Of a stretch of 64,000 nucleotides of DNA, positions 26,435-32,690 are shown piece after piece; position 1 is the first letter of the stretch, and each line of letters begins with the position of its first letter. The notes beneath the pieces were generated by a model, which saw only the letters and a program-made list of their open reading frames with translations, made no database searches and was not told where the DNA came from. Made by a program: the position numbers and the translations under genes. The stretch comes from an uncultured candidatus Brocadiaceae bacterium (GTDB taxonomy: Bacteria; Planctomycetota; Brocadiia; SM23-32), in assembly GCA_964421565.1 (NCBI GenBank), contig CAYQXJ010000006.1, forward strand, positions 154,679-218,678, given 5' to 3'.

Positions 26435-26457
26435 GGGGCGCCCCAGGTGGGCGCCCC
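26435..26457. terminator. GC-rich hairpin between the convergent CMD-family gene and the rubredoxin gene; it could act as a bidirectional terminator
   Basis: The hairpin is GGGGCGCCC-caggt-GGGCGCCCC, a perfect 9-bp stem with a 5-nt loop. It is followed by CTTT on the plus strand. Confidence 0.45.
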
Positions 26458-26477: not shown

Positions 26478-26639
26478 TCAGTCCCGGGCCATGAAGAACT
26501 CGGCCGTGGCCCCGCAGATCGGGCACCGCCACTCATTGGGAAGCTCCACGAAGGGCGTGCCCGGGGGCACTCCTTGTTCCGGATCCCCCTGCTGCGGGTC
26601 GTACACGTAGTCGCATAGCAGGCATTCGTGATGCGTCAT
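26478..26639 (-). CDS. rub: Rubredoxin
   Basis: MTHHECLLCDYVYDPQQGDPEQGVPPGTPFVELPNEWRCPICGATAEFF has the two CxxCG knuckles and the conserved aromatic residues of rubredoxin. It is 53 aa long. Confidence 0.85.
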   Translation of the reverse strand: MTHHECLLCDYVYDPQQGDPEQGVPPGTPFVELPNEWRCPICGATAEFFMARD

Positions 26640-26728
26640 GGGCGGGGGATCTTCCTTTCGTCCGCCATCTGGAGAGAAGAAAGGGGCCCCGAAAGCGGCC
26701 CCCATTGTAGCTCACCTACACGCCGCTT

Positions 26729-28378
26729 TCAGGCGAGGGCCTCCTCCAGGTCCTGCTCAACGGTTGAGATGGGTTGGATGTGGAACTTGTCGACGAGCAC
26801 CTTCAGGACGGGATCGGTGATGAAGGCCGGCAGGCTCGGCCCGAGCTTCATATCTTCGATGCCCAGGCTGAACAGGGTCAGCAGGATCGCCACCGCCTTC
26901 TGCTCATACCAGGAGAGGATGAAGGAGAGCGGCAGTTCGTTTACCTCGCAGTCGAAGGCGTCTGCCAGTGCCAGCGCAATCTGTATGGCGGAGTAGGAGT
27001 CATTGCATTGCCCGATGTCGAGCAGGCGCGGTATGCCGCCGATGTCGCCGAACTCGAGCTTGTTGAAACGATACTTGCCGCAGGCGAGGGTCAGGATCAG
27101 GCAGTCGTCAGGAACCGACTCGGCGAACCGGGTGTAGTAGTTGCGCCCGGGCTTCGCTCCGTCGCAGCCGCCGATCAGGAAGAAGTGGCGGATGTCGCCG
27201 TTCTTCACCGCGTCAATCACTGCCCCCGCGACGCCCATGACGGCCTCGTGGCCGAAGCCGACGGTAATCGTCTTCTCTTCGTCGTCTTCGGCAAAGCCTT
27301 CGGCCGCCTGAGCCGCCTGTATGACCTGCGAGAAGTCGGTATCGCTGATGTGGGTGACGCCGGGCCAGCCGGTCGGGCCGCTGGTGAATATGCGCTCCTT
27401 GTAGGTGTCCTTCGGCTTCATCAGGCAGTTGGTGGTCATCAACACGGCGCCGGGGAAGTCCTCGAACTCCGAGCGTTGGTTCTGCCATGCACTGCCATAG
27501 TTGCCGACCAGATGTTCGTGCTTCTTCAGCTCGGGATATCCGTGAGCGGGCAGCATTTCGCCGTGCGTGTAGACGTTGATGCCCGTTCCTTCGGTCTGCT
27601 CCAGCAGCGCCTTCAGGTCCTTCAGGTCGTGGCCGCTGACCACGATGCACTTACCTTTCAGCGGTGTCACGCGCACCTGCGTGGGTTCGGGATCGCCATA
27701 AGTGCCCGTGTTCGCCCTGTCCAGCAGTTCCATCGCCTGCAGGTTGAGCTCCCCGGTCTGGAGCGCGTGGGCCAGAAGGTCGCCCATGTCCGTCGGCTCG
27801 GACGCCACGTAATCGAGCAGTTCATGGAACAGCGCGTAGGTTTCGTCATCCTCCTCGCCAAGGATGGCGGCGTGATGCGCGTAGGCGGCGGCGCCTTTCA
27901 CGCCATAGACGATGGCTTCCTGCAGGCCGGCCACATCCTCGCCGTGGCGATCGATGCGGTTCTCGATGGAGAGCTGTTCGCCCTGGCTTATCATGTCGTT
28001 CAGGTCGTCGGCCGGTTCGAGGGCGGCGGTGCCGTCCAGCTCTTCGGGCGCTCTGTCTGCTTCGCGACAGGCGTCTTCATAGCGCCCCTTCAGCCGTTCG
28101 CGCAGCTCGGTGCCCCTTCTCACGTAGTCCTGCAGGTATTCGGGGTCGAAGTTGGTGTTGGTCAGCGTGGTGAACATCGCGTCGCAGACGAACCGGTCGG
28201 CCTCGTTGTCACGCGCGCCCAGCTCGCCGGCGCGGCGGCCGTACATCGCAACACCTTTGGTCAGGTGGACCAGCAAGTCCTGCATGGCTGCCGTTTCGGG
28301 ATCCTTGCCGCACACACCGTAGCTGGTGCATCCGTTGCCCTGTGCCGTCTGTTCGCACTGGTAGCAGAACATGCTCAT
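26729..28378 (-). CDS. hcp: Hybrid cluster protein (hydroxylamine reductase / prismane protein)
   Basis: The (MS)MFCYQCEQTAQGNGCTSYGVCGK N-terminal cubane-cluster motif is present. The length is 549 aa with Hcp-like conservation throughout. Confidence 0.9.
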   Translation of the reverse strand: MSMFCYQCEQTAQGNGCTSYGVCGKDPETAAMQDLLVHLTKGVAMYGRRAGELGARDNEADRFVCDAMFTTLTNTNFDPEYLQDYVRRGTELRERLKGRYEDACREADRAPEELDGTAALEPADDLNDMISQGEQLSIENRIDRHGEDVAGLQEAIVYGVKGAAAYAHHAAILGEEDDETYALFHELLDYVASEPTDMGDLLAHALQTGELNLQAMELLDRANTGTYGDPEPTQVRVTPLKGKCIVVSGHDLKDLKALLEQTEGTGINVYTHGEMLPAHGYPELKKHEHLVGNYGSAWQNQRSEFEDFPGAVLMTTNCLMKPKDTYKERIFTSGPTGWPGVTHISDTDFSQVIQAAQAAEGFAEDDEEKTITVGFGHEAVMGVAGAVIDAVKNGDIRHFFLIGGCDGAKPGRNYYTRFAESVPDDCLILTLACGKYRFNKLEFGDIGGIPRLLDIGQCNDSYSAIQIALALADAFDCEVNELPLSFILSWYEQKAVAILLTLFSLGIEDMKLGPSLPAFITDPVLKVLVDKFHIQPISTVEQDLEEALA

Positions 28379-28432
28379 GTGATGTTACCCCCTGTTGCTG
28401 GAAGCGATAGTTACGAGTTTTGCGGTCGTGGA

Positions 28433-29623
28433 TCAGATGTCCTTCGTTCTGTCCGCCATCTGGCGTCCCCACTCGCGGCACGCCTGCAGGGCGTCCGCGT
28501 CTGGCTGCCACTTGCACTTGATGCCGTCCGTCGCCAGCGGGATACTGCACTGTTCGAAGTGGTTTTCGATGATCTGAACGGCCTCGCCGCTCCAGCCGTA
28601 GCTGCCGAACGCGGCGCCGATTTTGTTCTGGAAACGCAACCCCCGCAGGTCCTCCAGTATGGGCCGGATGGTCGGCAGCACGCCCTGATTCAGGGTCGGC
28701 GAGCCGATGATCACGGAGTGAGCCTTGAAGACCTCGACCAGGGCGTCATTACGGTCGGTGACGCCCATGTGAAGTATCTTGTGGTCTACGCCCCCGTCGC
28801 TGAGCCCGGCTCCGATGGCATCGGCCATGCGACGCGTGCCCTCCCACATGGTGTCGAACAGGATGACGGCACGCGGGCGGGGTTCCTGTTTCGCCCACTC
28901 CACGTATTTCTCAACGATCTGCATCGGCTCCCGTCGCCATATGATGCCATGACTTGGCGCGATCATCTCGATGTCGAGATCCAGCGGCCCGAGCTCCTCC
29001 ACCTTCCGAAGCACCTGCGGGCTGAACGGCGTCAGGATGTTGACGTAATACTTGAGCGCCTCGTCGAACAACTCCTTCTGGTTCACCTGATCGTTGAAGC
29101 GGAACGCCGTGGCGTAGTGTTGTCCGAAGGCGTCGTTGGGCATCAGTATGTGGTCGGCGGTCAGGTAGGTGAACATGCTGTCCGGCCAGTGCAGCATGGG
29201 CGCCTCGACGAACATCAGGTCATTGCGCCCGACGTTGACCGTGTCGCCGGTGTTGACAGCCTTGAAGTCCCAGTCTTTGTGAAAGTGGCCGGGGATGCTC
29301 CGCTTGCCGCGGCGGGAGACGATGAGCGTGGCGTCCGGGCAATGCCGCAGCAGGGCGGGCAGAGCGCCGGAGTGGTCGATCTCGGAGTGGTTCGCCACCA
29401 CGATGTCGATCTGCGCCGGGTCAATGATCTCGCGGATGTTTTCGAGCATCTCCTCGGCGAACGGTTCCCACACGGTGTCGACCAGCACTGTCTTCTCGTC
29501 GAGGATCAGGTACGCATTGTAGCTGGAGCCGCGGTGCGTGGAGAGTTCGTGTCCGTGGAAGTGCCGCAGGTCCCAGTCCACGACGCCCACCCAGTAGACG
29601 CCGTCCTTTAGTTTTTCTGGCAT
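28433..29623 (-). CDS. Flavodiiron protein (rubredoxin:oxygen / nitric oxide reductase, FprA/ROO-type)
   Basis: N-terminal metallo-beta-lactamase-like diiron domain (VYWVG, NHSEIDHSGALP H-x-E-x-D-H motif) plus C-terminal flavodoxin-like domain; ~396 aa. Confidence 0.9.
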   Translation of the reverse strand: MPEKLKDGVYWVGVVDWDLRHFHGHELSTHRGSSYNAYLILDEKTVLVDTVWEPFAEEMLENIREIIDPAQIDIVVANHSEIDHSGALPALLRHCPDATLIVSRRGKRSIPGHFHKDWDFKAVNTGDTVNVGRNDLMFVEAPMLHWPDSMFTYLTADHILMPNDAFGQHYATAFRFNDQVNQKELFDEALKYYVNILTPFSPQVLRKVEELGPLDLDIEMIAPSHGIIWRREPMQIVEKYVEWAKQEPRPRAVILFDTMWEGTRRMADAIGAGLSDGGVDHKILHMGVTDRNDALVEVFKAHSVIIGSPTLNQGVLPTIRPILEDLRGLRFQNKIGAAFGSYGWSGEAVQIIENHFEQCSIPLATDGIKCKWQPDADALQACREWGRQMADRTKDI

Positions 29624-29646
29624 GTTTGCCCCCTTATGCCGTTATG

Positions 29647-29907
29647 TCACGCAGCCCTGACGGGCGGCTCCAGCACCATCTCCCGATTGCAGCATCGTGG
29701 TTCGAAGGCGCCGCCGGTCACTCGCAGCACGCCGACTTCGGCGCCGCACACCGGGCAGTAGTAGAAGCGCGTTCGGCACCCCAGCGGAGCCATTGGCCGG
29801 TTGCAGCAGCGCGGTTCGAACCCGGCGCCGCGCCCGACCAGCACTGTCACCTCGGCGCCGCAGATGTTGCACCGGTAAACCATTCCCCTCGTCACGCTGT
29901 CTGTCAC
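29647..29907 (-). CDS. Tandem desulforedoxin-like protein with two Fe(Cys)4 modules
   Basis: It contains two copies of the desulforedoxin signature YxCxxCGxxVxV...GxxxxxxCCNxxM. They are YRCNICGAEVTVLVGRGAGFEPRCCNRPM and YYCPVCGAEVGVLRVTGGAFEPRCCNREM. The GTG start at 29907 is preceded by GGAGGAGG. The GTG and the upstream TGA overlap within the tetranucleotide GTGA, which suggests translational coupling. Confidence 0.7.
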   Translation of the reverse strand: MTDSVTRGMVYRCNICGAEVTVLVGRGAGFEPRCCNRPMAPLGCRTRFYYCPVCGAEVGVLRVTGGAFEPRCCNREMVLEPPVRAA

Positions 29908-30128
29908 TCTTCCTCCTCCGGTTCGGCTTCGGCCCCGTGAACGCGTTCCATGGGTTCACCACAGCACACAAGGTCGAGGATGCCCACGCCCCCACGGGTG
30001 ACCATGATCAGGTTGCCGCACCCGCGACACGCGTACGCCGTGCCGACCTTGATGGTGAGTGCGCTCTCCCAGTCGCCCAGGTCCCACTCGGGCGGCGGTG
30101 ACTCGGGGTACTTCTCCTGGCTTTCCAC
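29904..30128 (-). CDS. Desulforedoxin-like protein (single Fe(Cys)4 module)
   Basis: YACRGCGNLIMVTRGGVGILDLVCCGEPM matches the D. gigas desulforedoxin pattern ([27 protein letters not shown]). I chose the GTG start at 30128, which is preceded by a GGAGG Shine-Dalgarno sequence. The longer 30350 ORF is Arg-rich with low complexity and probably not translated. Confidence 0.6.
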   Translation of the reverse strand: MESQEKYPESPPPEWDLGDWESALTIKVGTAYACRGCGNLIMVTRGGVGILDLVCCGEPMERVHGAEAEPEEEE

Positions 30129-30365
30129 AGCTCCACCTCCTGGTTCTGACGCAACGGCGGCGGCTGATGCGTATGCGCAGTGCCTGCTGGGAACGCCGTG
30201 CCGCCGTGCTTCGGGGGGATGTCGTAGCGGCGCCCCTCGCTGCGGGTTCCTGCGGCGCTTCCATCTTTCTACGCTTTCGGCGAACATCGCGCAAGTAGGT
30301 TCGCAGCGCCGGCGTGCGCCCGGGCCGCCTGATGGCAGGGTCCTGGCCATGGCAGTCGGTGTCTC

Positions 30366-30683
30366 CTATGGTGCAGGGGTCTTGACGACGAGGAACCGAA
30401 AAGCCGCTTCGCCATCGTTCATCAGCCTGTGTGGAATGCCGGCCGGGCTGTGCACAAGGTCGTCCCGGCGGACAGACTGCTGCTGGTCGCCTATCTCCAC
30501 GGTGCCCACCCCCTCCAGTACGTAGAAGAACACGTCCAGCGGAGTTTCATGCCGCCGGAGGGCCTCGCGCGGTTCCAGGGTGATGTGCACCACCTGCATA
30601 TGCTCGGTGTCGTGCAGCTTCCGGGCGCTGACGCCGTGTGGGTTCTCGGATTCAGCCGTCTGCGTCGCGTGGACCACCTGCAT
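30366..30683 (-). CDS. Cupin-domain protein
   Basis: The small barrel protein carries H...H-type cupin motifs (LRRHETPLDVFFYVLEGVG...SPAGIPHRL). Confidence 0.6.
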   Translation of the reverse strand: MQVVHATQTAESENPHGVSARKLHDTEHMQVVHITLEPREALRRHETPLDVFFYVLEGVGTVEIGDQQQSVRRDDLVHSPAGIPHRLMNDGEAAFRFLVVKTPAP

Positions 30684-30708
30684 GATGTGATCTCCTCAGT
30701 TGCGCTGG

Positions 30709-31479
30709 TCAAGGGGCCGAAGCGGGCTGGGGCGGATTGAGCGTGCAGCGCTCAAGGACGCTGCCGCGAATGCTGACGGTTACGTCCTGCAGGGGGATGT
30801 CCTTGCCGCTGTGCTCGAGGGCCCTGCGGGCGATCATGGTGAGGCCCGAGCAGCAGGGTACCTCCATGTGGACGACGGACAGCGAGCGGATGTCGTTTTG
30901 AGCCAGCATGGCTGTTAGCTTCTCGGCGTAGTGCGACGCGTCGTCGAGCTTGGGGCAGCCGACCAGGAGCTTTCGCCCGGTCAGGAACTCGCCGTGGAAC
31001 CCTGCGAAGGCGAAGGGCACGCAGTCCGCAGCAAGCAGCAGGTCCGCGCCGTCCAGGAATGGTGCGCGCTCAGGGACCAGATGCATCTGAACGGGCCACT
31101 GGCGCAGGGCGCTCGGGGCGGCGGCCGGCGCCGCTTCGGCGGTTGACTCGTCTTCCTGCCCGGCGTCGAAGCCCATGAGCGCCAGGCCCGGGCAGCCGGC
31201 GTGCGAGGGGGCGGGCTGCGTGGCGTTCGGTGGACTTGCTTGCCCCAAATGTTCCTCCACGGCCACCTCGTCAAACTCCTCGGCCTCGCGTTCGACGATG
31301 CGGATTGCATCCCGTGGACATGTGCCCAGGCACGCGCCGAGCCCGTCGCAATAGCTCTCCTTGACGAGCCGAGCCTTACCGTCGACTATCTGCAGGGCAC
31401 CTTCCGCGCAGTTCGGGATGCACTCTCCGCAGCCGTTGCACTTCTGCTCGTCGATCTCGACGATCTTCCGTAAGGCCAT
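30709..31479 (-). CDS. 4Fe-4S dicluster ferredoxin-domain protein with a Cys-rich C-terminal domain
   Basis: The N-terminus has two CxxCxxCxxxCP-type motifs (CNGCGECIPNCAEGA and CDGLGACLGTCP). The C-terminal region contains GCPKLDD and VPCCSGL. Confidence 0.65.
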   Translation of the reverse strand: MALRKIVEIDEQKCNGCGECIPNCAEGALQIVDGKARLVKESYCDGLGACLGTCPRDAIRIVEREAEEFDEVAVEEHLGQASPPNATQPAPSHAGCPGLALMGFDAGQEDESTAEAAPAAAPSALRQWPVQMHLVPERAPFLDGADLLLAADCVPFAFAGFHGEFLTGRKLLVGCPKLDDASHYAEKLTAMLAQNDIRSLSVVHMEVPCCSGLTMIARRALEHSGKDIPLQDVTVSIRGSVLERCTLNPPQPASAP

Positions 31480-31501
31480 GGGTTCTCCCCCTGGATGCTG
31501 T

Positions 31502-32194
31502 CTATGGGTTCAGGCGCTGACGGCCGAACAGCCGCCCCGGTTGTGTCAGCGCATGCTTCTGGAGTTCTGCCAGTCGGTCCTCGCGTGCGTCGGCTTCAAG
31601 ATTCACGATCAGGTCGGCGTCCCAGAGTGGGGCGGCATTCGGCGTGCCCATGCTCTGGCGCTCGTGATGATGCTCCACAATGTCGAGTATCTCGCTCTTG
31701 ACGGCGTCCGGCAGGTTGATGTCGGCAAGCAGCTTCGCGGCGATGCGGCGGCCCATCACGTCGGTCGGCGCGTCGGCTTCATCGTCCGGCACGGAACGTC
31801 CCAGGTCATGGAGGATGGCGGCGGGCACCAGCACGAGCGGTTCGGCTTCCGTGCGGCGCCCGATCTGCTCTGCCAGTTCCAGCACATCGAGGGTATGCTC
31901 CACCTTATCCCTTTCGGCTCCGAAGACCCCCTCCATGCGCTCGGTCAGCTCTTCCCGCAACGGCCCGACGGCGCTGGCCATGCTGCTGAGGCACTCGGCG
32001 GCGTGGGCGCACCAGTTCAGGCATTTCATGGTGTTCTCGGGGTTGAGGAAGCGGTGACCACACTTTCTGCAGCGCCTGACGGGCTCATCGGGCCAGAACT
32101 CCACCGGGTGGCCGCAGCCGGGGCAGGGCGCAACGGTAACGTCGTCGGCCTTCATAAAGCGGGGGTCCTGCCCTGGGCACTTCGGTGCGCTCAT
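31502..32194 (-). CDS. HD-domain phosphohydrolase-like protein with an N-terminal zinc ribbon
   Basis: The N-terminal CPGCGH...CRKCGH ribbon is followed by an HD motif (AAILHDLGR) and a His-rich IVEHHHE segment. Confidence 0.6.
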   Translation of the reverse strand: MSAPKCPGQDPRFMKADDVTVAPCPGCGHPVEFWPDEPVRRCRKCGHRFLNPENTMKCLNWCAHAAECLSSMASAVGPLREELTERMEGVFGAERDKVEHTLDVLELAEQIGRRTEAEPLVLVPAAILHDLGRSVPDDEADAPTDVMGRRIAAKLLADINLPDAVKSEILDIVEHHHERQSMGTPNAAPLWDADLIVNLEADAREDRLAELQKHALTQPGRLFGRQRLNP

Positions 32195-32616
32195 CGCTTC
32201 GTCCCTTCCCCTGCGCAGATGCGTCCGGCGATGTCCTCCAGCGAGACGGCGTCCATCCTCTCAGCCAGCAGGGCCTGCAGGGACGCGAGCTGTTCGCGAA
32301 ACGGGCAGCCGCTCGTGCGCTGGCATATGCCGGGTGTCTCGAAGCACTCGTTCATCACCAGCGGGCCCTGCACGGCCTCCAGCACTTCCCGCAGGGTCAC
32401 ATCCACCGGCCGTTCGGCCAGACGATAGCCCCCGAACGGCCCCTGGCGGCTCTCCACCAAGCCGGTGCGGAGCAGTGTCTGCATTATCTTGCGCAGGAAG
32501 TCCTCCGGCACGGCCTCCTCCTGCGCCAGAGTGCTGACCGGCACAAAGTCCCCCGCGTGGACCAGATGCGTCAGCGCCCGGAGCGCATAGTCGGTCTCTC
32601 GTCTGACGATGGCCAT
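32191..32616 (-). CDS. Rrf2-family transcriptional regulator (NsrR/IscR-like, three-Cys cluster ligand set)
   Basis: The N-terminal wHTH is RETDYALRALTHL...VSTLAQEEAVPEDFLRKIMQTLLRTGLVESRQG. The C-terminal Cys triad is C-x6-C-x5-C (CFETPGICQRTSGC). It is the first gene of the minus-strand operon. Confidence 0.85.
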   Translation of the reverse strand: MAIVRRETDYALRALTHLVHAGDFVPVSTLAQEEAVPEDFLRKIMQTLLRTGLVESRQGPFGGYRLAERPVDVTLREVLEAVQGPLVMNECFETPGICQRTSGCPFREQLASLQALLAERMDAVSLEDIAGRICAGEGTKR

Positions 32617-32690
32617 CAGAGGGTCCTATATGAGAGGTGTTGTATCCTATAAAGTAAGAGTATATCACTCCTATATCTCCTTGTCAAGGC
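32617..32690 (-). promoter_or_regulatory. Sigma70-type promoter of the Rrf2-led operon with three overlapping TATAGGA repeats, a candidate Rrf2 operator
   Basis: On the minus strand, the -35 element TTGACA (plus-strand TGTCAA, 32682-32687) is separated by 17 nt from the -10 element TATACT (plus-strand AGTATA, 32659-32664). Three copies of TCCTATA(T/A) lie at 32625-32632, 32645-32652 and 32670-32677. One is inside the spacer, one just downstream of the -10 and one next to the start codon. The region is unusually AT-rich for this genome. Confidence 0.6.

Follow-up and report, generated by a model that had tools for sequence, protein, structure and literature searches.

A row of co-oriented genes led by an Rrf2-family regulator lies in a 64,000-nucleotide stretch of DNA (the window) from an uncultured planctomycete. 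Which stress do these genes answer, and does the regulator control them, itself included? The cluster is likely to be a nine-cistron stress operon, with its main transcript arising from one sigma-70-type promoter that is autorepressed by an NsrR-like Rrf2 protein, and with products that remove NO and O2.

Gene content of the cluster

The features of the locus are listed in Table 1. On the minus strand the order of transcription is Rrf2, HD protein, ferredoxin with AF_0155 domain, cupin, two desulforedoxin-type ORFs (Dx1 and Dx-Dx), flavodiiron protein (FDP), class-I Hcp and rubredoxin. All nine ORFs share one orientation, as an earlier note on this DNA had stated, but that note had counted ten genes; its second and third desulforedoxin modules form a single ORF without an intervening stop codon. 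Three such modules do exist, spread over two ORFs. The gaps of 22–89 bp given previously do not apply to the Rrf2/HD and Dx1/Dx-Dx junctions, which are 4-nt overlaps, and the exceptional 237-bp gap is real but falls after the cupin gene in the direction of transcription, not before it. GC3 of all nine ORFs is 0.80–0.86 (coding-type), and the operon sequence is identical in five independent samples.

Table 1. Predicted genes and DNA elements of the locus (positions within the window).
Feature	Position	Strand	Description
Operon ORFs	26478–32616	minus	nine, all co-oriented (ORF list)
9-bp all-G-C hairpin	26435–26457		3′ of rd, common to convergent CMD gene; T-tract on plus strand only
Rubredoxin (rd), 53 aa	26478–26639	minus	ATG at 26639
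Terminator-like hairpin, hcp-rd	26682–26703	minus	7-bp stem, then TTCTTCTCTC
Hcp, 549 aa	26729–28378	minus	class-I N-terminal motif CX2CX8CX5C
FDP, class A, 396 aa	28433–29623	minus	metallo-beta-lactamase-like and flavodoxin domains, without rubredoxin domain
Dx-Dx, 86 aa	29647–29907	minus	two tandem CX2C...CC modules; GTG start overlaps Dx1 stop (GTGA)
Dx1, desulforedoxin-like, 74 aa	29904–30128	minus	GTG start behind AGGAGG
Non-coding spacer, 237 bp	30129–30365	minus	cupin–Dx1; GC3 0.63, without coding periodicity
Internal operator-like site	30349–30369		ATAGGAGACACCGACTGCCAT; overlaps cupin stop codon
Cupin_2 protein, 105 aa	30366–30683	minus	Pfam 56.4 bits
Ferredoxin-like protein, 256 aa	30709–31479	minus	2x[4Fe-4S] N-terminal, AF_0155 (PF27217) C-terminal
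HD-domain metalloprotein, 230 aa	31502–32194	minus	Pfam HD 47.6 bits; start overlaps Rrf2 stop (ATGA)
Rrf2-family regulator, 141 aa	32191–32616	minus	invariant D9, C91, C98, C104
Operator O2 (predicted)	32630–32650		ATAGGATACAACACCTCTCAT; covers predicted transcript start
Operator O1 (predicted)	32654–32674		ATAGGAGTGATATACTCTTAC; 21-bp palindrome overlapping −10 box
Sigma-70-type promoter	32659–32687	minus	−35 TTGACA 32687–32682, 17-nt spacer, TG-n-TATACT ending 32659

Profile matches in Pfam and NCBIfam bear out the domain identities that had been read from the sequence. Hcp matches Prismane (573.5 bits) and the hydroxylamine reductase model NF003658 (817 bits, cut-off 367), and its N-terminal motif, FCYQCEQTAQGNGCTSYGVCG in the translation, places it in class I. 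The FDP carries ODP/Lactamase_B (residues 34–226) and Flavodoxin_1 (254–385) domains, an arrangement of class A. It is not a NorV flavorubredoxin, falling below both models for that protein (NF008887, 563.6 bits against 635; NF003954, 480 against 711) and having no rubredoxin domain. Rubredoxin itself scores 75.6 bits against PF00301 (cut-off 23), with the CX2C pairs CLLC and CPIC, and 75.1 against NF045768, under the cut-off of 90.

Desulfoferrod_N (PF06397, cut-off 23) is found in both Dx1 (34.8 bits) and Dx-Dx (44.7 bits), although the two ORFs score 28.5 and 29.9 bits against TIGR00319, below its cut-off of 36.05. The four ligand cysteines are retained in all three modules and in their homologues. 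Their spacing is non-canonical, with seventeen residues between CX2C and CC and a two-residue insertion (34 residues versus 32 profile positions in the Pfam alignment). An N-terminal extension of Dx1, PEWDLGDWE, is also conserved.

The HD protein has an N-terminal Zn-ribbon (C24, C27, C42, C45) and a further cysteine set (C6, C58, C62, C68); conservation of the N-terminus KCPGQD supports the long start. Its structure model (pLDDT 88) matches generic HD hydrolases only. The AF_0155 domain of the ferredoxin contains four invariant cysteines, and gene context, namely linkage to hcp and to NO regulators, makes this protein the probable FrdX-type partner of Hcp.

The earlier description of a self-contained island needs revision on both words. 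The GC content (0.63–0.67) matches that of the flanks, and synteny of the flanking genes extends to relatives, so the cluster is not an acquired island. Nor does it encode an NAD(P)H-linked reductase (Hcr, NorW or rubredoxin reductase), and electrons must therefore come from elsewhere.

Regulator, promoter and predicted operators

The regulator belongs to the Rrf2 family by its matches to PF02082 (106.6 bits, cut-off 30) and TIGR00738 (91.9 bits, cut-off 73.3); behind this generic superfamily model, the NCBIfam runner-up is a SUF regulator model (68.3 bits). The cysteine triad noticed earlier at the head of the operon is confirmed, with spacing CX6CX5C, and its three cysteines are invariant, together with D9, in 29 homologues. 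Assignment as an NsrR orthologue (NF008240, 40.1 bits against a cut-off of 182) or as IscR (TIGR02010, 49.9 against 207.55; NF008110, 28.1 against 275) was rejected, and none of the 28 loci carries isc or suf genes.

RsrR of Streptomyces venezuelae is a redox-sensing [2Fe-2S] Rrf2 protein with a Glu/His/Cys/Cys ligand set. It is the top-scoring solved relative of the regulator (PDB 6hsd, 2.2e-21 with profile), NsrR (PDB 5n07) giving an E value of only 2.8e-5, and the effector could therefore be redox state or O2 rather than NO. The cysteine positions of the two proteins align, and D9 aligns residue for residue to Glu8 of RsrR, but the position of His12 is taken by an invariant Arg13, which argues against RsrR-type ligation (Glu8/His12). 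D9 also falls at residue 8 of 5n07 (Asp8), by coordinate offset only (HMMER ranges 6–130/5–131); Asp8 of S. coelicolor NsrR is the fourth cluster ligand, donated by the partner subunit. With His12 replaced and three cysteines invariant, coordination would resemble that of NsrR (three Cys plus Asp), not that of RsrR.

The strong promoter proposed ahead of the regulator gene is present, matching 11 of 12 positions and carrying an extended −10 TG; promoter-like sites in the upstream region number three, against 0.8 expected. TTGAC[AG]-N17-TATAnT stands upstream of Rrf2 at all 28 loci, and so does a 21-bp palindrome over the promoter with the consensus ATAGGAGT-N5-ACTCCTAT. A half-site PWM was built from 25 sites, leaving out the window and all sites of the O2 type. 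O1 is its top match in the 64 kb (22.4), a score equalled in 0 of 200 dinucleotide shuffles. The position of O1 is the same in 27/27 related loci, a conservation that is partly that of the −10 element itself, and for most O1 sites the score is in part circular, since 25 of them went into the PWM. At 12 loci, including the window, a second palindrome is found exactly 24 bp further on; in the window this is O2 (14.7, third-best). The second-best match is the internal site at the end of the cupin gene (16.9, attained in 0.3% of operon-body and 4% of whole-window dinucleotide shuffles), which shows no conservation among related loci. The next match scores 6.8. A conserved promoter overlapped by conserved palindromes is the arrangement expected of an autorepressor, and these palindromes probably represent a previously undescribed operator through which the repressor acts.

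Conservation and relation to known regulons

The earlier note had proposed comparing gene order among relatives. An Rrf2-first, Hcp-last plan is kept in 22 of the 24 related species-level loci (Planctomycetota MAGs) that have enough downstream sequence to judge. Between these ends the members vary (HD, ferredoxin, FDP, cupin, Dx pair, RIC/ScdA, rubredoxin). Hcp is present in 22/22 of the operons, the ferredoxin in 16/22, HD in 15/22, FDP in 14/22, RIC/ScdA and cupin in 7/22 each and the Dx pair in 6/22, with Dx-Dx always accompanied by Dx1. The operator-bearing promoters stand ahead of hcp, FDP and RIC/ScdA genes at these frequencies. In relatives the operon also includes genes for RIC/ScdA (YtfE) and hemerythrin, both hallmark members of nitrosative-stress regulons. 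In the related locus L008 the rubredoxin gene likewise lies 3′ of hcp. A rubrerythrin gene is located near the operon in L006.

Outside the planctomycetes, the HD and ferredoxin pair adjoins hcp in deltaproteobacterial MAGs. At three deltaproteobacterial loci, the ferredoxin gene adjoins hcp in two and a Crp/Fnr (HcpR-like) gene in two; in Geoalkalibacter it adjoins Crp/Fnr and YgbA_NO genes. A cNMP_binding/HTH_Crp gene is present at loci L043, L165 and L167 of Desulfuromonadales and deltaproteobacteria; the window contigs and four Pfam-annotated related planctomycete loci show no such gene linked to the operon. The same pair beside hcp, with a Crp/Fnr gene adjacent at two of the three loci, suggests that the type of regulator has been swapped.

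HcpR is a Crp/Fnr activator of hcp-frdX in Desulfovibrio, Desulfuromonadales and Clostridioides, and a cupin_2 gene (DGI_2602) belongs to its regulon in D. gigas. The present operon shares a class-I-type Hcp, a FrdX-like ferredoxin and a cupin_2 protein with that regulon (matched by family and context), but has a predicted Rrf2 repressor in place of the activator. FDPs with a rubredoxin donor are known from the rd-roo and rbo-rub-roo operons of Desulfovibrio and from NorR-norVW of E. coli. As there, an FDP shares one operon with Fe(Cys)4 centres of the rubredoxin and Dx types; unlike there, the operon lacks a gene for an NADH:rubredoxin or flavorubredoxin reductase (NorW-like), rubredoxin has its own gene 3′ of hcp, the Dx modules are free-standing rather than the N-terminal domain of a superoxide reductase, and the regulator is an Rrf2 protein, not NorR or PerR.

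NsrR is an NO-sensing [4Fe-4S] Rrf2 repressor that controls hmp, ytfE, hcp-hcr and ygbA in enterobacteria, and hmp in Bacillus and Streptomyces. The locus resembles this regulon in the Rrf2 fold with three C-terminal cysteines and an N-terminal Asp that may correspond to Asp8, in a palindromic predicted operator with an N5 centre overlapping the promoter, and in NO-detoxifying targets that include Hcp and, in relatives, RIC/YtfE. It differs in having the regulator as first cistron of its own predicted target operon, in the absence of flavohaemoglobin, and in the inclusion of FDP, rubredoxin, Dx modules, HD protein and FrdX-type ferredoxin. The half-sites also differ, the NsrR box being gATGyAT-N5-ATrCATc (PMC1274295). 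Induction of hcp, FrdX-type ferredoxin and cupin_2 genes by NO or GSNO has been reported in Desulfovibrio and Clostridioides (PMC4534486, PMC12915319), and NO/GSNO induction and NO-sensitivity phenotypes are on record for hcp, frdX and one cupin_2 gene (PMC12915319, PMC4534486, PMC1274295).

Transcription units, signal and proposed mechanism

Transcription could be subdivided, given the hairpin that separates hcp from rd and the operator-like site at the start of the spacer. Rrf2-HD-ferredoxin-cupin would then form one unit, and Dx1-DxDx-FDP-Hcp(-Rd) another, controlled separately from the spacer; the internal site might be a second operator or a roadblock, and rubredoxin might have its own weak promoter. 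This is unlikely. The sole long gap does open with the second-best operator match, a strong internal operator is found by PWM in L018, ahead of the ferredoxin gene, and a weak promoter-like site (26732–26704, 9/12) precedes rd together with the hairpin, the fold energy of which is unexceptional (z −0.25). However, the spacer contains no −35/−10-like promoter, no terminator follows the cupin gene, relatives do not keep the internal site, and short junctions join the same genes in them. The internal site coincides with a TAG stop and the SD-like AGGAG, and may thus be a chance match, in line with its frequency in 64-kb shuffles. Searches of the spacer revealed no Rfam family above threshold, no unusual fold and no ScdA remnant; the only weak Rfam match nearby is CcsR1 on the plus strand (30121–30212, 18.9 bits against a gathering score of 65.3, E 0.51). 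The spacer sequence is identical in contigs of four other samples.

As to the signal, the operon may serve chiefly in O2 or redox defence, with RsrR-like sensing and with FDP, rubredoxin and Dx centres forming an oxygen-reducing chain like that of Desulfovibrio rd-roo. Anaerobes classically defend themselves against O2 and ROS with FDP, rubredoxin and Dx-type centres, the regulator is closest to RsrR among solved structures, and a rubrerythrin gene neighbours one related operon. This emphasis is possible but doubtful, as Hcp is the only structural gene retained universally and FDP is dispensable, RIC/ScdA genes recur, and the RsrR ligand His12 is lost. The FrdX-type ferredoxin and the cupin are, moreover, of types that belong to NO-induced regulons (PMC12915319, PMC4534486). 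NO and O2/redox signals are not mutually exclusive. A metabolic role, in which Hcp would reduce hydroxylamine or NO for nitrogen assimilation or energy metabolism, would suit the NCBIfam name of Hcp and the NCBI lineage label Brocadiia; it is very improbable, since no locus has linked genes for a nitrite or nitrate reductase or for a hydrazine or hydroxylamine oxidoreductase, and a repressor-first, autoregulated architecture with RIC, FDP and rubredoxin suits a stress response. The proposed cluster-repair role of RIC proteins, the many Fe-S or iron proteins encoded and the SUF model as runner-up would fit an IscR/SufR-like sensor of Fe-S cluster status governing Fe-S homeostasis or repair. Such a sensor is extremely unlikely, given that every named equivalog cut-off is missed, that isc and suf genes are absent from 28/28 loci, and that the IscR type 1 site presumably differs in sequence from the operator found here.

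The nitrosative/oxidative-stress reading of the earlier note is thus upheld in silico by the conserved operon, the RIC/ScdA and hemerythrin genes of relatives and the predicted operators that overlap the promoter. As the preferred model has it, the Rrf2 protein would hold an NsrR-like [4Fe-4S] cluster through Cys91, Cys98 and Cys104 and Asp9 of the partner subunit. As long as the cluster is intact, dimers would occupy the two adjacent 21-bp palindromes, O1 at the −10 box and O2 at the transcript start, and block RNA polymerase, repressing rrf2 itself along with the other eight cistrons. Once NO, and possibly O2, had nitrosylated or oxidized the cluster, the protein would leave the DNA and all nine genes would be derepressed; as the repressor is the first product made, the operon would be shut off again when the stress ends. 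Two reductases would then act, the flavodiiron NO/O2 reductase and class-I Hcp (as NO or hydroxylamine reductase), both supplied with electrons by the small iron proteins. Rubredoxin and the three desulforedoxin-type centres would probably serve the FDP, and the FrdX-type ferredoxin would probably serve Hcp, together with the HD-domain protein that is its conserved partner; with no NAD(P)H-linked reductase in the operon, these routes are guesses.

Most likely, then, the function of this planctomycete operon is the removal of nitric oxide and oxygen, and its own iron-sulfur repressor probably turns it on and off. It represents a solid case of a well-known defence, not a new type of system, and its predicted operator is newly described.

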